In this document: positions 1,422 to 28,007 of the stretch, piece after piece
How the letters are laid out: every line of letters begins with the position of its first letter
How positions within the stretch are numbered: the first letter of the stretch is position 1
Virus record (IMG/VR): IMGVR_UViG_2541047816_000002
From: a virus
Taxonomy: Duplodnaviria; Heunggongvirae; Uroviricota; Caudoviricetes
Direction: 5' to 3' (one strand)
Length of the DNA stretch: 38,841 nt
Notes under the pieces: generated by a model
Seen by the model: the letters and a program-made list of their open reading frames with translations, nothing else
Databases searched by the model: none
What the model was told of the DNA's origin: nothing
Translations under genes and position numbers: made by a program

Positions 1422-3893
1422 TTAAAAATCAGCCTGATTCGGGATCAGTTTTTGCCAGATAACTGAAACGTATTTTGCCTGGTAACGGGCGTCATCAAGT
1501 GCATTATGGCGCTCACCTTCGAATGGAATAGCCGTTCTGGCATCGAAGTCTATGGCTTTCCCCAGCTCAACGATTGTGCGTACATCGCGATCGTTGTAGT
1601 AACGCCATGGGCAGGGGATCCCCTGCCGTTCGTATGAACGGCGCAAAATCGTGTTGTCGAAGTTGGCTCCATTTCCCCAGACCTGAACAAAAAATTCGCC
1701 GGAGTTTTCGTCGATAAATTCCCGCAATTGCAGCAGTGCATCATCTAACGGGATTTCATCGGTCAGAATGGCAGATTGCGCCTCCCGTGATTGCTTAAGC
1801 CACCATTTAATGGTGCCACGATCAATGACTCCGCCAGCAGTATCCATATCGATGGTCTTACTAAATTCCGGCCCCATATCTCCGGTTTGCGGATCGAAAA
1901 ATATTGCACCTATTGAGATAAGCGGGGCATCGGGATTTTTTCCCATGGTTTCAAGGTTGATCATCATGTGGTGCCACATTCTGCTGGTGGATGTGATAAC
2001 GTGATGACCGTTCATCGCAATTAAGGGATCTGCCGTCTCGCCAGTTTCACTATCGCTGGCGTGATCCTGAGCGCTACCAGCATTCTCCTTGTGTGGATGT
2101 TCAGCGCCTTCCATTTCCTTCGGATCATTTTCCTGAACTTCAACCTGATTCTCTTCATCGAATGTTTCCTGGTATGTTGCGTCGCCCATTACCGCGCCAC
2201 AATCAGGGCAGTTGCCACCACCGCTTTGACCGCAGGCGGTGCAGACTTTTTCCGGTTCCTGTTGCGCTACTGGCTCAGGTTGTTTCGTTTCTGGCTCGTT
2301 TTGTAACGCATTTGGGCTGTTTTGTTCCGCTTTCTGGCCGTTCTGTTCCGTTTCTTGTTGGTTCTGATTCACTGAATCGCGGGTTTCAATCCCCTTCACC
2401 CATTTCGGATCATTCGGGTCGCTAATCCCTGCAACAAATTCACCACGTGATACAGCAAGCAACTTATTGGCGTCAGGCTGGCTGATATTGGCTGCCTGCA
2501 TAATTTTGTTTACTTCGTCAGCGGTAACTTTTACCGGCTCTGGTTGTGCGATCGTGTCAGATGCACCAGTATTTTGTTGTGAACCTGAGTATGTACTGTT
2601 TTTGCGGGCGAAATATTCTTCTTTCGTGATTTCAGTAGCCCCAGCAGACAGCGCCTTATCCAGACCAGAAAGTTTGTTTGCGCGACCGTATTTTTCGCCA
2701 TCCTTGTCGGTGAAGAGGAAGTAGAACGGCCCCTCACGTTCTACAGATGGTTCGACTTCCACTTTGCATTCGGTTTTTTCGTTGTCCGGAATTGCCGTTT
2801 CCACTGCATCAGTTTCTGGTACTGGCGACGAGAGAGTATCAGTTGCGCTCTGATTTGTTCCTTCATCTTCAAACACGCCCTTTGTAGTCAGGTATTCAGT
2901 AATGTATTTGTTCAGTGCCACAGGGTCTTTGTGAATGTCGATCGGACGTTCACGGACAAGGCCAAAAATAGTCTGGCGGTCGTAGCGAAGGGCATCAGGC
3001 TGTTTGCGCATTGATGCCGAGATACGCTTCCAGTCTTCGCGGTCGTTGTCGATAACTTCATTTTTTGCCCAGCGATGGATGCTGCCGTCAATGTTTCCGG
3101 CATCCACATCACCAGGCCAGAGAGCGTAGGCCAGTTCGTCATCCAGTGTTTTCCATGTCTGCTTGTATTCGCGATGAATGGCAGCAATGACCGGGTTGAT
3201 TTTTCCTGTTGAATTTTCAGTGTGCTGTTGATTGGCTCTGGCGCGGGCGAGATCAACAACAGACGTGTATTTTCCGGCTTCCTTGCGTTCACCTTCGCGA
3301 CGTTTTTTCCAGATGCGCATCTCTGCCTGAATTTCGGGCCATTTGGCACCAGGCTTACATTTATGCTTAACCCACCCGATGGCATGCAGCTTAAGCTCCG
3401 GATACATGGCGTTAACTTCTGGCATTTTCATCAACGCTTCAACGATATGTCCGTCGAATGTTGCCATGTCTTCCTGCAACAATTCCTGTGCGCTAATAAC
3501 CATATCAACGGTGATGTTTTCACATGTGTCGAACTTAACCATGACAGCGTTCTGTACTTCAGGGGCCAGCTTGTCAAAAGTGACGTTCATCGGATCGGAT
3601 TCAGTCTCAACCGGGACAAAGGAAGCAGACTCCTCATCCCAGCGGTTTTCCTGCATATATTCAGCATCCCAGGAATCGAGGGCAGGGCGGGGTATACCGG
3701 GTTTATCCTCGCAGACAAGAAATTTATAAGCGCAGTCCTGAGCAGCCGGATAATGCTCCAGGAATTGCCAGTGAAATTTTGCGCGGGCGCGACGTTCATC
3801 ACCGGCTTCAATGGCAGTGGCTACAGCGACGGCACCTTCTTCCTTTATTGCCTGTTCGTCCGGAATGGCGGCGCAAATAAAGACTTTACTCAT
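1422..3893 (-). CDS. Large early-operon protein with C-terminal DnaQ-like (DEDDh) 3'-5' exonuclease-like domain
   Basis: 823-aa ORF; RBS GAGGT 9 nt upstream of ATG at 3893; C-terminal ...ERHNALDDARYQAKY... resembles the DnaQ Exo III motif (H-x-A-L-x-D-A); internal CxxC...CxxC (CTACGQSGGGNCPDCG); acidic/Gln-rich linker. Confidence 0.6.
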   Translation of the reverse strand: MSKVFICAAIPDEQAIKEEGAVAVATAIEAGDERRARAKFHWQFLEHYPAAQDCAYKFLVCEDKPGIPRPALDSWDAEYMQENRWDEESASFVPVETESDPMNVTFDKLAPEVQNAVMVKFDTCENITVDMVISAQELLQEDMATFDGHIVEALMKMPEVNAMYPELKLHAIGWVKHKCKPGAKWPEIQAEMRIWKKRREGERKEAGKYTSVVDLARARANQQHTENSTGKINPVIAAIHREYKQTWKTLDDELAYALWPGDVDAGNIDGSIHRWAKNEVIDNDREDWKRISASMRKQPDALRYDRQTIFGLVRERPIDIHKDPVALNKYITEYLTTKGVFEDEGTNQSATDTLSSPVPETDAVETAIPDNEKTECKVEVEPSVEREGPFYFLFTDKDGEKYGRANKLSGLDKALSAGATEITKEEYFARKNSTYSGSQQNTGASDTIAQPEPVKVTADEVNKIMQAANISQPDANKLLAVSRGEFVAGISDPNDPKWVKGIETRDSVNQNQQETEQNGQKAEQNSPNALQNEPETKQPEPVAQQEPEKVCTACGQSGGGNCPDCGAVMGDATYQETFDEENQVEVQENDPKEMEGAEHPHKENAGSAQDHASDSETGETADPLIAMNGHHVITSTSRMWHHMMINLETMGKNPDAPLISIGAIFFDPQTGDMGPEFSKTIDMDTAGGVIDRGTIKWWLKQSREAQSAILTDEIPLDDALLQLREFIDENSGEFFVQVWGNGANFDNTILRRSYERQGIPCPWRYYNDRDVRTIVELGKAIDFDARTAIPFEGERHNALDDARYQAKYVSVIWQKLIPNQADF

Positions 3894-4372: not shown

Positions 4373-4930
4373 TCAACTATGAATTTTTAGCAATTGCTCC
4401 ACAGTCATATTTTTAATTGCGCTCCGGTTTACAAGAGTCCATCCTTGTTTCTCCAGATAAAACCGGAAGGTATCCAGGGTGCAGACCATTGCGCCGTCAG
4501 GAACGGTTTCAGTGAATTTGATATTGCCGTGTTCGTCGAGACGGATAACCAGGGTGCGTCCGTCCCCGTGAATCATTTTGTCGGGAGACGGGGCGTTATT
4601 CTGGCGCAGTTCAGCTTCCATGCGGTCGAACTCAGCAATGTATGCCTCTTTAAATGCAGCGGCTTTTTTGCCAGTGAAGCCCATCACCAGGAAAACGAAG
4701 CCGTTTTTGGTGATTTGGTACATTGGGAGTTTGCGCCCGGTTGAGTCGGTGTATTCGCTCGACACAAAATTGTGCTCAGTGAATTTTGCTGAACAGTCCA
4801 GATTGCGAATTTTATCCAACACTCGTTCGTGGCGTTTGCCAAAGAACTCGGCGATCGCAACAGACGTAGTGACAGCGCGACCATTTTCGATGGTTACGTC
4901 AGGGTGAGAAAGGGTAAGGATAGTAGCCAT
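4373..4930 (-). CDS. Phage regulatory protein, Rha family
   Basis: Start chosen at internal ATG (4930) with GGAGG 8 nt upstream; the longer track ORF (to 5227) would run through an intrinsic terminator; contains ...KLPMYQITKNGFVFLVMGFTGKKAAAFKEAYIAEF... Rha-like core. Confidence 0.72.
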   Translation of the reverse strand: MATILTLSHPDVTIENGRAVTTSVAIAEFFGKRHERVLDKIRNLDCSAKFTEHNFVSSEYTDSTGRKLPMYQITKNGFVFLVMGFTGKKAAAFKEAYIAEFDRMEAELRQNNAPSPDKMIHGDGRTLVIRLDEHGNIKFTETVPDGAMVCTLDTFRFYLEKQGWTLVNRSAIKNMTVEQLLKIHS

Positions 4931-5099
4931 GATGGCAGCCTCCGCGATGAATTTGATTAACTCACCACCGAGGTTTTCCACGACCATAAGGGTGGTGAGA
5001 CGTACAGGGGTGGAAATACCGGTCATCACGGAACCCGGCCAGCCTTGCGGCTGCCCTGCACGCCCCACCATAATGCGAATGTGGCTGTGCTTAACGCAT

Positions 5100-5122
5100 A
5101 AAAAAACCGCCTGAGCGCGGTT
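5100..5122 (-). terminator. Rho-independent terminator for leftward transcription
   Basis: Minus-strand hairpin AACCGC-loop-GCGGTT followed by a T7 run (an A run on the plus strand). Confidence 0.6.
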
Positions 5123-5799
5123 ATGCGCCGTGAATGATTTCGGGTTTCCACGCCCGGCACCCGTTTTATGAGGTGCAGGTGCACTATAATTCCACCCGTT
5201 CTGGTTTTCAATAGCTACATTCAACATTTTCTCTCACCTTTTCAGCGGAGTGAACTTTGTGATGCAGTGCCTGGTGCCTCCAGGTGACGTTAACCAGTTA
5301 ACAATTAACGCCGGATACAGAGAATCCACCCATAACACTGTTTTTGGTTTTAACTGTTCCGCGTGCGCTGAGCCGCATTCACCGCATCACAAAATTCACT
5401 TTAAAAAGGGCGGCAGAGCAGTCACGGAGTAAAACTGATACCGCCAAACGTCACCAGAAAATTGATAACAGAGGGCGTTGCAGCGGGGTTGTCACTTAAG
5501 CGTATGGTCAACCTGACAACCCGGTGTCCTCAACGGGGGAAGGAATAACCCCGCCATACTTACCGCCGCGCCATTTCGCGGATTGCCACAACCGGAAGCG
5601 CACGGTCGACGAAAATTTAACGACAGGCTATCTATGAACCAGCTACCTCGCCGTGCGCTTTCGCGTTATGGTCTGACTTTTCAGGGAAATATCCTTTCAG
5701 TAAACTGTCAGTGCCGGATTCTTATCCGTGTCCGGCGCACGACCACACGCTGTCACGAGAGGTCTCCATTCTCAACCAGTAACCTCAATGGAGGATAAA

Positions 5800-11772: not shown

Positions 11773-12009
11773 TTTTATGGATCACCTTTCTGATTGATTT
11801 CATATTGGCGAGGTGACGTGAGTTAAGTAGAATGGCTGCGGGTGCTTGAGGCTATCTGTCTCAGGCATGAACACTGAAAGGCAGATAGAGAAAAGCCCCA
11901 GTTAACATTTCGCGTCCTGCAAGACGCTTAACATTAATCTGAGGCCCAATCTATGTCTCACAAATGTAGGTTAGCCTCTTACGTGCCGAAAGGCAAGGGG
12001 AAGCAGGCT

Positions 12010-12165
12010 ATGAAGCAGCAAAAGGCGATGTTAATCGCCCTGATCGTCATCTGTTTAACCGTCATAGTGACGGCACTGGTAACGAGGAAAGACCTCTGCG
12101 AGGTACGAATCCGAACCGGCCAGACGGAGGTCGCTGTCTTCACAGCTTACGAACCTGAGGAGTAA
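12010..12165 (+). CDS. hok: Hok/Gef-family type I toxin (small membrane peptide)
   Basis: MKQQKAMLIALIVICLTVIVTALVTRKDLCEVRIRTGQTEVAVFTAYEPEE matches recalled HokD/RelF; intrinsic terminator follows. Confidence 0.85.
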   Translation: MKQQKAMLIALIVICLTVIVTALVTRKDLCEVRIRTGQTEVAVFTAYEPEE

Positions 12166-14035: not shown

Positions 14036-14416
14036 ATGACTGAACGCATAGAATTTGTTTTGCCTTACCCGCCAACGGTGAACACTTACTGGCGACGCCG
14101 TGGCAGCACATATTTTGTATCAAAAGCCGGGGAGCGTTATCGCCGGGCAGTGGCGCTTATTGTTCGCCAGCAGCGGCTGAAATTAAGCCTGTCCGGAAGG
14201 TTGGCAATAAAAATTATTGCAGAACCACCGGATAAGCGCCGCCGTGACCCGGACAATATTCTGAAAGCGCCGCTGGATGCGCTGACGCATGCGGGGTTGC
14301 TAATGGACGATGAGCAGTTTGATGAAATCAATATCGTTCGTGGTCAGCCAGTATCTGGTGGACGTCTGGGGGTGAAGATTTACCCCATAATGCTTGAAGG
14401 GCAGGTCAAAAAATGA
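14036..14416 (+). CDS. rusA: Holliday junction resolvase RusA
   Basis: 126 aa; ...DPDNILKAPLDALTHAGLLMDDEQ... matches RusA catalytic region (recalled E. coli RusA). Confidence 0.88.
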   Translation: MTERIEFVLPYPPTVNTYWRRRGSTYFVSKAGERYRRAVALIVRQQRLKLSLSGRLAIKIIAEPPDKRRRDPDNILKAPLDALTHAGLLMDDEQFDEINIVRGQPVSGGRLGVKIYPIMLEGQVKK

Positions 14417-15234
14417 AACTGGAAGATTTACCGAAATACTACTCCCCAAAATCCCCCGGCCTGACCGATGCGTCCGCCTCGACATCAAAAGATGCGCTGA
14501 GTATCACTGATGTGATGGCCGCGCAGGGCATGACACAAAATCGGGCTGAGATGGGTTTTTCTGCGTTCCTTGGGAAAATGGGCATTAGTATGAATGACAG
14601 AGAGCGGGCAACAGAATTGCTGACAGAATATGCACTCAGTCGGTGTGATCGCGTGGCGGCGTTAAGAAAACTCCCGGCAGAAATAAAACCGGTAGTGATG
14701 CGCATTATGGCTTCGTACGCTTTTGAGGATTATGCCCGCAGCGCAGCGAGTAAAAAGCAGTGCCCTTGTTGCTATGGGGAAAAATTTATTGAAAGCGTAG
14801 TTTTTACAAACAAGGTCCAGTATCCGGATGGTAAGCCGCCGGTATGGGCAAAGTGTACGAAAGGTGTGTATCCGTCTTACTGGGAAGAATGGAAAAAAGT
14901 CAGGGAGGTGGTAAAAGTTGCCTGTCCGGAGTGTGGCGGAAAGGGTGAGGTTTCCACCGCCTGTAAGGATTGCCGTGGGCGTGGTGTCGCCATTCATCGT
15001 GAAGAGTCGGTAAAACGTGGTATGCCTGTTATCAGAGACTGCCAGCGTTGTGGTGGTCGTGGCTGTGAAAGACTACCATCAACGGAGGCATTTAATGCCA
15101 TACGCAAAGTGACGAGTGCTATCACGCTTGATACGTGGAAAAAATCAGTGAAACGCTTTTACGATACGTTGGTGGTTCGGTTTGACATTGAAGAGGCATG
15201 GGCGGAGCGGCAGTTAAAGAGGGTAACGCGATAG
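14413..15234 (+). CDS. Late antiterminator Q (zinc-finger type)
   Basis: 273 aa; three CxxCxGxG repeats (CPECGGKG, CKDCRGRG, CQRCGGRG); lies immediately upstream of a lambda-like pR'/qut. Confidence 0.7.
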   Translation: MKLEDLPKYYSPKSPGLTDASASTSKDALSITDVMAAQGMTQNRAEMGFSAFLGKMGISMNDRERATELLTEYALSRCDRVAALRKLPAEIKPVVMRIMASYAFEDYARSAASKKQCPCCYGEKFIESVVFTNKVQYPDGKPPVWAKCTKGVYPSYWEEWKKVREVVKVACPECGGKGEVSTACKDCRGRGVAIHREESVKRGMPVIRDCQRCGGRGCERLPSTEAFNAIRKVTSAITLDTWKKSVKRFYDTLVVRFDIEEAWAERQLKRVTR

Positions 15235-15316: not shown

Positions 15317-15338
15317 CCCGCCGCCTGGCGGGTTTTTT
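15317..15338 (+). terminator. tR'-like intrinsic terminator ~45-60 nt downstream of the pR' start
   Basis: cccgcc-gcct-ggcggg hairpin followed by T6. Confidence 0.65.
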
Positions 15339-15460: not shown

Positions 15461-15658
15461 ATGCTAAAACAGCAGGATATGACAGAAACCGCCAGAGTAG
15501 TGTTTAATGAATTAAGAGTTACCGAACCGGCGACAGTCGGGGAGATAGCGCAGAATACTTACCTTTCACGCGAACGCTGCCAGTTAATACTGACCCAGCT
15601 GGTTATGGCGGGTCTGGCAGACTATCAGTTCGGTTGTTACAGACGCCTTCCGCAGTGA
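15461..15658 (+). CDS. Hypothetical small protein (65 aa, possibly winged-helix)
   Basis: ATG at 15461 after A/G-rich RBS; stop codon lies inside a terminator hairpin. Confidence 0.45.
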   Translation: MLKQQDMTETARVVFNELRVTEPATVGEIAQNTYLSRERCQLILTQLVMAGLADYQFGCYRRLPQ

Positions 15659-15668
15659 AGGCTTTTTT
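15645..15668 (+). terminator. Rho-independent terminator
   Basis: gccttc-cgcagt-gaaggc hairpin followed by T6. Confidence 0.55.
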
Positions 15669-15808
15669 ATTTGTGGTAAATGGGCGGCTGGTGGGTGTTA
15701 GGGGCACCCACCAGCCATCTGCTCATGCGTTGGGTTCACAAGCAAACCTCAGGCCCACTGCTTTGCGCAAAAGCAGAATGAGCCTATCAGAGACAGGCTT
15801 AATGATCC

Positions 15809-16856
15809 ATGCTTAATACTGTAAAAATATCCAGTTGTGAGTTAATCAACGCCGACTGCCTGGAATTTATCCGGTCGTTACCCGAAAATTCTGTTGACCT
15901 GATAGTCACGGACCCGCCGTACTTTAAAGTGAAGCCTGAGGGCTGGGATAACCAGTGGAAGGGCGACGATGATTACCTGAAGTGGCTGGACCAGTGTCTG
16001 GCGCAGTTCTGGCGGGTGCTGAAACCTGCCGGAAGTCTTTACCTGTTCTGTGGTCATCGCCTGGCATCTGATATCGAAATCATGATGCGTGAACGCTTCA
16101 GTGTGCTGAACCATATTATCTGGGCGAAGCCGTCCGGACGCTGGAACGGATGCAACAAGGAAAGCCTGCGGGCGTATTTCCCCGCCACAGAGCGCATTCT
16201 GTTCGCGGAACATTATCAGGGGCCGTATCGTCCGAAAGATGCCGGGTATGCGGTGAAGGGCAGTGCACTGAAACAGCATGTGATGGCCCCGCTGATTTCT
16301 TACTTTCGTGATGCGCGCGGCCCTGGGGATAACGGCAAAACAGATTGCAGATGCCACAGGAAAGAAAAACATGGTGTCGCACTGGTTCAGTGCCAGTCAG
16401 TGGCAGCTACCGAACGAAAGCGATTATCTGAAATTACAGTCGCTGTTTGCCCGGGTGGCAGAAGAGAAACATCAGCGCGGTGAACTGGAAAAGCCCCACC
16501 ACCAGCTGGTGGATACGTATACGTCACTGAACCGGCAGTATGTGGAGCTGCAGAGTGAATATAAGCATCTGCGGCGGTATTTTGGTGTGACGGCGCAGGT
16601 GCCGTACACGGATGTGTGGACACATAAACCGGTGCAGTTCTATCCCGGGAAACATCCGTGCGAAAAACCGGCAGAAATGCTGCAGCAGATAATCAGCGCA
16701 AGTAGCCGTCCTGGTGATCTGGTTGCGGATTTTTTCATGGGGTCGGGTTCAACGGTAAAAGCGGCGATGGCACTGGGGCGTCGTGCGATTGGTGTTGAGC
16801 TGGAGACCGGACGTTTTGAGCAGACAGTCAGGGAAGTTCAGGATTTAATCGTTTGA
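15809..16856 (+). pseudogene. DNA methyltransferase (beta-class N6A/N4C, DPPY motif), frameshifted
   Basis: Two overlapping ORFs in different frames: 15809-16483 carries motif IV DLIVTDPPYF, 16308-16856 carries motif I FFMGSGST; frame switch near 16300-16330. Confidence 0.6.
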
Positions 16857-25755: not shown

Positions 25756-27255
25756 GTGACGCTCAATACTTCTCAGGTCAGTTACTATATGACTCAGCGT
25801 AAGAAAGGTATAACTCAGCATATCTCGGCCATGAAGGCTGGTATCTCAGTCCGTTCTGGTCGTCGGATCGAAAAAGGAGAGTGGGCAAAAAACAGTGTTC
25901 GGCACTGGCGCACACGCAAAGATCCTCTGGAAGCTGTGTGGGACAGCATGCTTGTTCCTCTGTTGAAAGAGAGGCCGGCTCTGACACCAACAACTCTGCT
26001 GGAGATGCTACAGGATAAATATCCCGGCCAGTACCCCAACAGCCTTCGAAGAACAATGCAACGGCGGGTCTGCGAATGGAAGCTACAGTATGGTGCAGAG
26101 CAGGAGGTCATGTTCCGCCAGCGACATCAGCCCGGTCTGCGAGGTCTGTCGGACTTTACTGAACTGAAAGGTGTAGTTGTCACCATCGCCGGTAAGTTGT
26201 TGGCGCATAAGTTGTATCACTTCCGTCTGGAATGGAGCCACTGGAGCTGGATGCGGGTTGTGCTGGGTGGTGAGAGCTTCTCTGCTCTGGCTGAAGGTCT
26301 GCAGGAAGCCCTCGGACAACTGGGCGGAGTGCCGGTAGAACATAAAACGGACAGCCTGAGGGCAGCATGGAAACAACAGGGCGAAGATGGACGCCGCGAG
26401 CTGACTGAGCGTTATGCTGCTCTCTGTCAGCACTACGGAATGCAGGGCGTACACAATAATGCCGGTCGGGGCCACGAAAATGGCTCGGTTGAAAGTGCCC
26501 ACGGACATCTGAAAAGGCGTATCTGTCAGGCGCTGATACTGCGGGGCAGTAACGACTTCAGCACCATAGAAGAATATCAGGCCTTCATCACTCAGCAGGT
26601 TATGCGGCACAACCGTAACAATCAGGATCTGGTCAAGGAAGAACGTCTTCATCTGAAACCGCTGCCGCTTCGTCGCAGTGCTGACTATGATGAGCTGACT
26701 GTGAGGGTTAGCCGCAGCAGTACCATCAATGTGAAGCACGTCGTCTACAGCGTACCTTCCCGGCTTGTAGGTCAACTGTTACGGGTCCGGTTATGGGACG
26801 ATCGTCTGAGCTGTTACGTTGGCAGCAGCGAGGTCATGAGCTGCCCACGTGTCAGACCAGAAAAAGGGAAGACGCGGGCCCGTCGTATCGACTTCCGACA
26901 TGTGATCGACAGTCTGGCAAAAAAGCCCGGTGCGTTCTGCCATGCAACGCTGAGAAATGACATCCTGCCAGACGATGAATGGCGGAGGCTGTGGCGTCGC
27001 TTATGTAATCATCTGGAACCCGACATGGCAGGCAGGCTGATGGTACATGCTCTGAAACTGGCTGCAGGATACGACGATATCTCAGTCGTGGCAAAAGGTA
27101 TGGAGCAGATGCTGAATACCCCGGGAAACGTGGATCTGCACCGGCTGATGCGCTTCCTGGGTATAAAGGAAAAGGCGTTGCCGGTAGTCAATGTGAAACA
27201 GCATAACCTGAGCAGTTATGAGCAACTACTGCGTGGCAAGGGAGGTTCGCAGTGA
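25756..27255 (+). CDS. istA: IS21-family transposase IstA
   Basis: 499 aa; GTG start with AGGA RBS; overlaps istB by 4 nt. Confidence 0.85.
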   Translation: MTLNTSQVSYYMTQRKKGITQHISAMKAGISVRSGRRIEKGEWAKNSVRHWRTRKDPLEAVWDSMLVPLLKERPALTPTTLLEMLQDKYPGQYPNSLRRTMQRRVCEWKLQYGAEQEVMFRQRHQPGLRGLSDFTELKGVVVTIAGKLLAHKLYHFRLEWSHWSWMRVVLGGESFSALAEGLQEALGQLGGVPVEHKTDSLRAAWKQQGEDGRRELTERYAALCQHYGMQGVHNNAGRGHENGSVESAHGHLKRRICQALILRGSNDFSTIEEYQAFITQQVMRHNRNNQDLVKEERLHLKPLPLRRSADYDELTVRVSRSSTINVKHVVYSVPSRLVGQLLRVRLWDDRLSCYVGSSEVMSCPRVRPEKGKTRARRIDFRHVIDSLAKKPGAFCHATLRNDILPDDEWRRLWRRLCNHLEPDMAGRLMVHALKLAAGYDDISVVAKGMEQMLNTPGNVDLHRLMRFLGIKEKALPVVNVKQHNLSSYEQLLRGKGGSQ

Positions 27256-28007
27256 GCAATATCCATCACCTTGAACGCAGCCTGCGTAAACTACGCCTGA
27301 CACGAGTTGGAGCTGAATGGCACGCTCTGGAAAAACGAGCACTGGCAGAAGGCTGGACACCATCGCGCTATCTTCTGACGCTATGCAATGAAGAACTCCT
27401 GTGGCGCGAGAGTGAAAAACTGCGTCGTTATAAAAAGGAGGCCCGGTTGCCAGTTGCCAAAACGCTAAGCGAATACGACTTCAGTCAGGTGCCGGAACTG
27501 AATGGAGCTCAGTTCCGGCAACTCTGTGAAACGACAGACTGGGTTGATGCAGGAGAAAACGTTCTGCTGTTCGGAGCCAGCGGGTTGGGGAAAAGCCATC
27601 TGGCGGCAGCGATCGTGGATGGCGTAGTAGGCCAGGGCTACCGGGCCCGGTTCTACAGCGCAGGAGAGTTGTTGCAGGAACTACGTAAAGCCAGAGCGCA
27701 GTTGAAACTGAATGAGCTGCTACTGAAACTGGATCGCTACCGGGTGATAGTGGTGGATGATCTTGGCTATGTCAAACGCGACAGCGCCGAAACGGGAGTA
27801 CTGTTCGAGTTAATAGCGCATCGCTATGAACGTGGGAGCCTGGTGATAACCAGTAACCATCCGTTCAGCATGTGGGGCAGCATCTTCGTGGATGAGACTA
27901 TGGCGGTGGCGGCGGCAGACCGGCTGATCCATCACGGATATATGTTCGAACTGAAAGGTGAAAGCTACAGGAAAAAGACAGCGAAGGCAGTAACAAGCGC
28001 GACTTGA
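27252..28007 (+). CDS. istB: IS21-family helper ATPase IstB
   Basis: 251 aa; Walker A GASGLGKSHLAAA, Walker B VIVVDDLGY. Confidence 0.9.
   Translation: MSNIHHLERSLRKLRLTRVGAEWHALEKRALAEGWTPSRYLLTLCNEELLWRESEKLRRYKKEARLPVAKTLSEYDFSQVPELNGAQFRQLCETTDWVDAGENVLLFGASGLGKSHLAAAIVDGVVGQGYRARFYSAGELLQELRKARAQLKLNELLLKLDRYRVIVVDDLGYVKRDSAETGVLFELIAHRYERGSLVITSNHPFSMWGSIFVDETMAVAAADRLIHHGYMFELKGESYRKKTAKAVTSAT

Follow-up and report, generated by a model that had tools for sequence, protein, structure and literature searches.

A conserved leader RNA with an embedded Chi octamer precedes a methyltransferase gene in the late operon of lambdoid prophages

Introduction

Why should a stable, GC-rich hairpin stand in the late operon of a lambdoid prophage, between a terminator and a DNA methyltransferase gene? 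The question arose from a sequence-only reading of a 38,841-nt stretch of phage DNA (IMGVR_UViG_2541047816_000002; the whole stretch is called the window here, and all coordinates refer to its + strand unless marked), which noted a perfect stem-loop and took it for an RNA element of the late leader. Intercistronic hairpins that stabilize or process polycistronic mRNAs include the RNase III sites of bacteriophage T7 (R1.1) and the stem-loops of the pap and puf operons. The element considered here is present in one or more prophages of about half of complete Escherichia coli genomes, including those of O157 and other Shiga toxin strains, and its position is 3′ of the Q antiterminator gene and 5′ of the genes that Q activates: the methylase and the tRNAs, to which related phages add stx and the lysis genes.

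Results

The window is a lambdoid prophage with the standard lambda gene order on the + strand. At its left end, the integrase gene (1 to 1131, − strand) directly adjoins a gene for an 823-aa RecE-like exonuclease (1422 to 3893, − strand), which may correspond to the RecE-2 proteins of Chi-rich lambdoid phages (PMC12315714); no obvious annealase or Gam gene lies beside it, and it was the only Rec function seen in the window. The repressor, cro, cII, O, and P genes follow in this order, and then come a DUF968 (NinG-like) gene, RusA, and Q (14413 to 15234; Pfam PF03589). Beside an anti-repressor-like gene, the Rfam models of C4 antisense RNA, isrK, and DicF matched one after another at 4988 to 5459 (− strand), and sok antitoxin RNA with hok was found at 11840 to 12015 (+ strand) upstream of the nin region.

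Downstream of Q, the terminator scan called a tR′-like intrinsic terminator, CCCGCCGCCTGGCGGG followed by TTTTTT (15317 to 15338), at which homology to most related phages begins (query position 78-79, corresponding to window position 15317). Next in the ORF list is a small winged-helix-like protein of 65 aa (15461 to 15658), which matched phrog_331, a phrog of unknown function, with an E value of 1.5e-37 and Pfam TrmB with an E value of 0.0033, under the curated cutoff; RefSeq names it “hypothetical protein” or “TrmB family transcriptional regulator.” This ORF is linked to the hairpin and the methylase across the Enterobacterales, with homologues in the Providencia and Photorhabdus loci. Its stop codon is overlapped by t1, a terminator-like hairpin consisting of GCCTTCCGCAGTGAAGGC and then TTTTTT (15645 to 15668), and alignment showed that t1 is kept in other genera with different stem sequences. 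The strength of the T run at t1 is inverse to that at the next hairpin, t1 being strong in E. coli and weak in Xenorhabdus.

The gene downstream of the hairpin encodes an N6/N4 DNA methyltransferase (15809 to 16856; Pfam PF01555, E = 7.9e-45 on an intact homologue) and is split in the window into overlapping ORFs (15809 to 16483 and 16308 to 16856) by a 2-nt deletion in a GCGCGC run near 16312, as judged against the intact copy of strain 203740 (L001). The split could reflect a pseudogene, a sequencing error, or slippage at the dinucleotide repeat, and because the methylase is frameshifted, the leader element may be idle in the window. Three tRNAs, two STnc100 copies, a nanS-like esterase, endolysin, Rz, and terminase (23483 to 25667, + strand) are encoded 3′ of the methylase. 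The tRNA cluster (Met/Ile-Arg-Arg, 16906 to 17155) precedes the tandem copies of the STnc100 sRNA (17232 to 17422 and 17700 to 17909; 136 and 161 bits), each of which ends in a terminator-like hairpin; a 2026 preprint connects STnc100 with the PasD sRNAs. An IS21-like element (25756 to 28007) carrying a transposase and an IstB-like ATPase lies between the terminase large subunit and portal genes, and for this reason the prophage is probably defective. Since the hairpin is located between two cistrons 3′ of Q and tR′, it falls within the Q-dependent late transcript.

The stem-loop was found exactly as reported, at 15687 to 15715, with the T-run hairpin t1 adjoining it upstream, the methyltransferase ATG (15809) on its 3′ side, and no T run in its 3′ flank (ATCTGCTCATGCG). 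The stem is perfect, as claimed, and one pair longer than the 11 bp given: H1 (15686 to 15716) is a perfect inverted repeat of GGCTGGTGGGTG (15686 to 15697) and CACCCACCAGCC (15705 to 15716), which form 12 bp around a 7-nt loop (15698 to 15704). As RNA, the 43-mer containing H1 folds at −29.9 kcal/mol (z = −4.96), and none of 200 shuffles was as stable; the 55-mer that also includes the lower stem described below folds at −33.7 kcal/mol (z = −4.87). Perfect hairpins with a stem of ≥12 bp and a loop of 3 to 10 nt number two in the window versus a mean of 0.02 per window in 100 dinucleotide-preserving shuffles. The H1 stem-loop is real and far from chance expectation. The other hairpin of this class (27490 to 27520), the only other one in the window with 12 perfect pairs and a 7-nt loop, lies inside the IS21-like element.

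H1 is the apical helix of a 47-nt extended hairpin (15680 to 15726) composed of a 6-bp lower stem, a 4-nt 3′ bulge, and the 12-bp upper stem, and this extended hairpin is domain 1 of a 133-nt leader (15679 to 15811) situated between the small winged-helix ORF and the methyltransferase gene of the lambdoid late operon. In the lower stem, P1′, the invariant 5′ flank of H1, AUGGGC (15680 to 15685), pairs with GCUCAU (15721 to 15726), while folds and alignment both place a bulge on the 3′ side, AUCU (15717 to 15720; AUYN among homologues). Folding predicted P1′ separately in the E. coli, Salmonella, and Providencia sequences. Between t1 and H1, the alignments revealed a conserved, unpaired linker with the consensus TGTGR-AAA (15669 to 15679), which in the RNA is a conserved single-stranded GUGRAAAU between two hairpins; a related sequence, GCGGTGAAATG, precedes the hairpin of Xenorhabdus and Photorhabdus.

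Domain 2 is closed by helix P4, in which GGUUCA-c-AAGC (15733 to 15743) pairs with GCUU-aa-UGAUCC (15797 to 15808). The 3′ strand of P4 comprises the 12 nt directly 5′ of the methylase AUG, which thereby have their partner segment 65 nt upstream; this AUG has no visible Shine-Dalgarno sequence. Inside P4, folds of three distant homologues gave an inner helix, P5/6 (15751-58 with 15778-85), enclosing an inner hairpin, H2 (15758-64 with 15770-76). Folded one at a time, the sequences from E. coli, Salmonella, and Providencia each arrived independently at the same two domains.

Several other candidates in and around the leader were dropped. RNAalifold proposed a long-range helix between TGGGC (15681-85) and GCCCA (15753-57) that was 100% paired, but its sole compensatory case, in Mixta mediterraneensis, is better explained by a G-U to A-U change in the lower stem together with a C-A repair in P5/6. 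A helix of CTCAT with ACAAG (P3) was only 63% paired; most sequences had C-A/A-C mismatches in it, and it competes with P4, for which the support is better. A leader peptide starting at the invariant ATG at 15680 (32 aa here) would stop after 7 codons in most genera and varies in length; moreover, it has no Shine-Dalgarno sequence, and its ATG is accounted for by pairing. The scan for a sigma-70 promoter in the linker between t1 and the hairpin or in the leader came back empty, and no conserved −10/−35 pair was seen by eye. A G-quadruplex formed by the G-rich arm and loop was rejected because the GGGG run of the loop is not conserved in other genera.

The hairpin turned out to be conserved across the Enterobacterales with compensatory changes. 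A 271-nt query around the hairpin matched at 5307 places in 2886 of 5426 complete E. coli genomes, and a 59-nt hairpin query matched at 4599 places in 2862 of the 5426 (median, 1 per genome; maximum, 8). Because the two queries match about the same genomes, with the hairpin at fewer places, the hairpin is no dispersed repeat and travels with the prophage module. A REP/BIME-like dispersed palindrome, for which many unrelated intergenic copies would be expected, was rejected, since the hairpin is bound to its context with a median of one per genome. Stx2-converting phages and phiP27 carry the hairpin region as well. In a survey of methylase homologues with one genome per species, the same intergenic region preceded the gene in Escherichia albertii, Salmonella, Citrobacter, Klebsiella, Enterobacter, Kosakonia, Mixta, Erwinia, Buttiauxella, Rosenbergiella, Providencia, and Morganella. 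In Xenorhabdus and Photorhabdus the leader differs, but the small ORF, an equivalently placed hairpin, and the methylase are all retained. A covariance model recovered the 133-nt leader only before methylase homologues (88 to 159 bits), and the hairpin is kept where identity of the flanking coding DNA is down to 66-78%.

Among 69 distinct homologues, the fold is conserved throughout the order by compensatory and wobble changes. In the covariance-model alignment of these sequences, H1 was paired in 98.1% of cells and 6 of its 12 pairs showed compensatory changes; this alignment is fitted to the structure, so that its best pair counts lean towards the structure, and its cells are not independent events, because many of the sequences are close relatives. 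P1′ was paired in 99% of cells, with one-sided changes only (G-U to G-C or A-U), and P4 in 94.7%, with changes on both sides in 5 of 10 pairs. P5/6 was 80% paired, with one pair changed on both sides, and H2 was 98.8% paired and almost invariant, for which reason its pairing is uninformative. The whole structure was 94-97% paired, compared to 29-42% with slid 3′ partners, and 0 of 500 shuffles reached the observed values. An unfitted MAFFT alignment agreed for P1′, outer H1, and P4, the helices without register shift. Altogether, these alignments and folds show the 133-nt leader as a conserved structured RNA with a second domain predicted to occlude the methylase start region. Its fixed position before one gene family, combined with sense-strand helices that carry compensatory changes, is what would be expected of a conserved cis-regulatory leader.

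Individual alleles illustrate how the stem varies. Among 133 viral-contig copies, which were chosen by the 5′ arm and thus report on variation in the 3′ arm, 57 have the 3′ arm CACCTGCCAGCC, with two G-U pairs, about 20 have CACTCACCAGCC, with one G-U pair, and 19 have the perfect-stem arm CACCCACCAGCC found in the window; several forms have a 13-nt 3′ arm, which leaves a 1-nt bulge. In an independent sample of 97 copies anchored on the methylase start, 91 carry the exact 5′ 18-mer, and the exceptions include the compensated arm pairs GGCTGGAGGGTG with CACCCTGCCAGCC and GGCTGGCGGGTG with CACCCAGCCAGCC. The Providencia arms, GACTGTAAAGGTG and CACCCTTACAGTC, are changed on both sides at four pairs. 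Copy V150 has a compensated change from U-A to A-U, and V153 and Enterobacteriaceae bacterium G50 (L220) have a compensated change from U-A to C-G.

Over all helices, 182 cells were G-U and 18 were C-A or A-C, and this excess indicates that the fold belongs to the sense-strand RNA. Pairing was higher on the + strand than on the − strand for P1′ (99.3 versus 83.8%), H1 (98.1 versus 92.8%), and P4 (94.7 versus 86.6%), and nearly all H1 variants fold more stably as the + strand, by up to 10 kcal/mol. Under the + strand wobble rule, the G/U-rich 5′ arm is expected to be nearly invariant, with the C/A-rich 3′ arm drifting by transitions. The rule explains part of the invariance of the 5′ arm (GGCTGGTGGGTG), and selection at the sequence level, for Chi or for a sequence-specific binder, could also contribute. 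Such strand-specific pairing speaks against an antisense RNA and also against a palindrome serving as a protein operator. A minus-strand RNA, suggested by a weak P26 match and a possible − strand terminator with GCCCAUUU, was rejected on the same 182 to 18 strand test; no − strand promoter was seen in the promoter scan.

Mosaic variants separate the parts of the module. Nine viral-contig copies and strain C7 (L013, 721 to 790) share homology only as far as the end of the hairpin's 5′ arm; STnc100-like sequence takes over from there, and these copies have neither the methylase nor the tRNAs. Repeat recombination was dropped as the source of this junction, the joined sequence being absent from the window and from L001. 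In the C7 variant, PGAP annotated a 15-aa CDS, MGGWWVWWLLLSRC, from the ATG corresponding to window position 15680. Homology stops just 3′ of the extended hairpin in five other copies. The L012 mosaic keeps domain 1 and the upstream ORF, whereas domain 2 and the methylase are replaced; the 3′ strand of P1′ is retained there as GCUUAU, with unrelated DNA downstream. Mosaics of the L012 type, together with Xenorhabdus and Photorhabdus, which have the hairpin only, suggest that domain 1 may serve the upstream cistron and not the methylase.

A pattern search located the exact Chi octamer, GCTGGTGG, in each arm of H1. The + strand corresponds to the lambda top strand by gene order (int ... Q, lysis, and terminase from left to right), and under the orientation rule of PMC12315714, in which RecBCD enters from the right, or packaging, end, the top-strand Chi (15687 to 15694, + strand) is in the active orientation and the second octamer (15708 to 15715, − strand) is in the inactive one. 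The bottom-strand Chi occurs only in perfect-stem alleles (19 of the 133 viral-contig copies) and is absent from the CACCTGCCAGCC and CACTCACCAGCC arms; its presence simply follows from perfect pairing with the first arm. Because it is missing from most alleles, a “double Chi” is not a conserved feature. The window contains 15 Chi octamers versus 1.7 expected, 11 of them on the top strand; they cluster at 13.2-16.5 kb and at 21.4-21.9 kb, immediately to the left of the packaging region. Across 80 homologous late-region loci (L192 to L271), the methylase strand carries 188 Chi octamers and the opposite strand 39, and Chi occupies the hairpin position in 43 of these loci. Compensated stems without Chi take its place in Providencia, V150, V153, and Enterobacteriaceae bacterium G50.

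Lambdoid phages that lack a canonical Rec module have been described as Chi rich, with active-orientation Chi clusters near the right end (PMC12315714). The window matches this class, and the top-strand Chi of the hairpin is thus plausibly functional. Nonetheless, since Chi was lost while pairing was restored, and since Chi leaves the lower stem and the bulge unexplained, we rank it as a second layer and not as the reason for the hairpin. The retention of GGCTGGTG throughout the order, even in Photorhabdus, is suggestive of selection on the sequence as well. Compared to the Chi hotspots of the Chi-rich phages (Zheng et al. 2025, PMC12315714), the site shares the exact top-strand GCTGGTGG and the location in a Chi-dense stretch left of the packaging site. 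It differs in that the octamer is inside a covarying RNA helix, which is kept in some homologues that have lost the octamer, and in having an inverted second copy, which is in the inactive orientation and not conserved; that paper makes no mention of hairpins or inverted Chi.

The 133-nt folded leader is apparently undescribed. Rfam 15 returned no match at gathering thresholds for 15640 to 15811, the best sub-threshold match being P26 on the − strand (24.2 bits against a threshold of 36), and no RefSeq feature is annotated under the 59-nt hairpin in complete E. coli genomes. The hairpin was not found in the paper on Chi-rich lambdoid phages, the paper on EHEC Hfq-CRAC sRNAs with its supplements, or the Pas sRNA preprint, and a full-text literature search with the arm sequences yielded nothing relevant.

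Discussion

We favor, with a probability of roughly 0.55, the view that the leader acts as a sense-strand RNA of the late transcript, a cis-acting intercistronic element for stability or processing that also limits translation of the methylase, with Chi as a second layer. Its RNA-level part agrees with the sequence-only reading of an RNA element in the late leader, which order-wide conservation, compensatory changes, and the strand-specific G-U excess strongly support. That reading was incomplete, for the stem-loop tops a longer hairpin within a two-domain leader of 133 nt that is predicted to sequester the methylase start region, and it missed the DNA-level layer formed by Chi in the stem.

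The effects on processing, stability, and translation are our inference from the modeled structure and would run as follows. Q-modified polymerase would read through tR′, the small ORF, and t1, and the extended hairpin would then form a cis-acting intercistronic barrier. Were the conserved single-stranded linker cleaved, the hairpin might cap a 5′ end or form a stable 3′ end; alternatively, being a helix of ~18-20 bp with a 3′ bulge, it might be a substrate of the RNase III type. Domain 2 would hold translation of the methylase low. The top-strand Chi in the 5′ arm would be the second layer, in a late region strongly enriched for active-orientation Chi and in a G/U-rich arm that happens to accommodate one. 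Pointing to a stability or processing element are the ~18-20 bp helix with its 3′ bulge, the conserved linker, and the retention of the hairpin with the upstream ORF in L012. The shape of domain 1, with 6 plus 12 bp (about two helical turns), two G-U pairs closing the loop, and a 4-nt 3′ bulge, is compatible with an RNase III site and not diagnostic of one.

The comparison with the T7 R1.1, pap, and puf hairpins rests on a long stable hairpin between two cistrons of one operon, an asymmetric 3′ bulge in a stacked helix of ~18-20 bp, and an adjoining conserved single-stranded linker that contains A and U. The present hairpin has no sequence relationship to the T7 sites and, unlike them, is coupled to a second domain whose pairing partner is the start region downstream. 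It resembles the lambdoid late terminators (tR′) as a GC-rich hairpin in a Q-dependent late leader, directly after two consensus terminators, and departs from them in that the U tract is absent in the window and in enteric-type homologues and the 3′ flank is base paired. Likewise, as in leaders that limit translation by sequestering the ribosome binding site, the 12 nt ahead of the AUG are paired with an upstream segment in P4, a helix that covaries; in contrast to those leaders, no Shine-Dalgarno sequence is visible.

Of the other explanations, the least improbable, although still unlikely, is that H1 and t1 act together as a back-up terminator or pause hairpin that stops Q-less polymerase before the methylase and lysis genes in the lysogen. 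H1 begins 18 nt past an intrinsic terminator within a Q-antiterminated operon, its 12-bp perfect, GC-rich stem (−29.9 kcal/mol) is stable enough, and the mosaic variant keeps the hairpin with the upstream ORF while the methylase is replaced. In some Xenorhabdus homologues, a T run comes directly after the equivalent hairpin (CACCTGCCTTTTATGCC, GCCGGCTTTTCGTG), and the T run of the upstream hairpin there is poor. The claim of the sequence-only reading that this is not a simple intrinsic terminator holds for the E. coli type. In the type found in E. coli, Salmonella, and Providencia, neither H1 (AUCUGCUCAU) nor the extended hairpin is followed by a U tract, the 3′ flank varies, and the terminator scan made no call at H1, where the flank is AUCUGCUCAUGCG; instead, the 3′ flank is taken up by the conserved lower stem, where its partner is the 5′ flank. 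Far less probable is a palindromic operator in the DNA, through which a dimer of the neighboring winged-helix protein would control the methylase gene. The small HTH-like ORF always adjoins the hairpin, and the arms co-vary in some lineages, as those of a co-evolving operator could; however, one-arm changes are common and strongly biased to G-U on one strand (50 G-U versus 6 C-A cells in H1), 1-nt bulges and loops of 6-7 nt alter the half-site spacing, the scan found no nearby sigma-70 promoter-like site to control, and the TrmB match is below the Pfam cutoff.

It is doubtful, too, that Chi itself is the selected feature, that is, a two-faced, inverted RecBCD hotspot at the DNA level that protects and recombines rolling-circle or packaged phage ends, with the potential for a hairpin being secondary. 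Much of the Chi evidence would fit such a view: the exact octamer on both arms, the excess in the window with 11 of 15 copies on the top strand, the strand bias and the 43 hairpin-position octamers among the 80 loci, a + strand equivalent to the lambda top strand with the packaging site ~7 kb rightward, and the precedent of phages without a Rec module that carry active Chi at the right end (PMC12315714). The Chi-bearing arm is invariant in 91 of the 97 methylase-linked copies, and two mosaic breakpoints fall at or just past the hairpin. Yet homologues that have lost Chi (GCTGGAGG, GCTGGCGG, and GACTGTAA) repair the pairing through the opposite arm, which a helix needs and Chi does not; most alleles have no bottom-strand Chi, conservation extends to the lower stem and bulge, and G-U wobble in a + strand RNA helix predicts just such an invariant G/U-rich arm. 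A neutral palindrome carried along with the prophage module, to which the pseudogene state of the downstream methylase in the window might point, is disfavored to the point of being hardly credible, given the shuffle expectation of 0.02 and an order-wide conservation with compensatory changes next to coding DNA of 66-78% identity.

A combination of functions is also conceivable, and we hold it only tentatively as a minority view: the RNA would be domain 1 of a riboregulator that gates translation of the phage orphan methylase, perhaps in response to the neighboring winged-helix protein or another factor, and the DNA of the 5′ arm would be a working, active-orientation Chi as well as a preferred junction for module exchange between lambdoid phages. 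The mosaic breakpoints at the hairpin and the order-wide presence of GGCTGGTG in a helix free to have any sequence would fit this arrangement.

Under the favored reading of a cis-acting leader RNA, the structure is an unannotated, very common, and conserved one with an embedded Chi as an unusual extra. A covarying 133-nt leader that neither Rfam nor genome annotation contains makes a concrete candidate for a new cis-regulatory RNA. If the reading is true, the leader's target would be a phage orphan methyltransferase; enzymes of this class influence restriction evasion and host epigenetics. The embedded Chi offers a natural test case of how selection for Chi density in lambdoid phages lacking a Rec module is fitted around other constraints, and because the site is constrained by RNA pairing, it should not be counted as a free octamer in Chi analyses of these phages. 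Chi is also found farther downstream, within the methylase gene: CCACCAGCTGGTGG (16499 to 16512) is a 14-nt perfect palindrome with Chi on both strands that encodes H-Q-L-V-D, and about half of the 80 homologous loci, including that of Xenorhabdus (E-L-V-E), carry a top-strand Chi at the Q/E-L-V-D/E codons.
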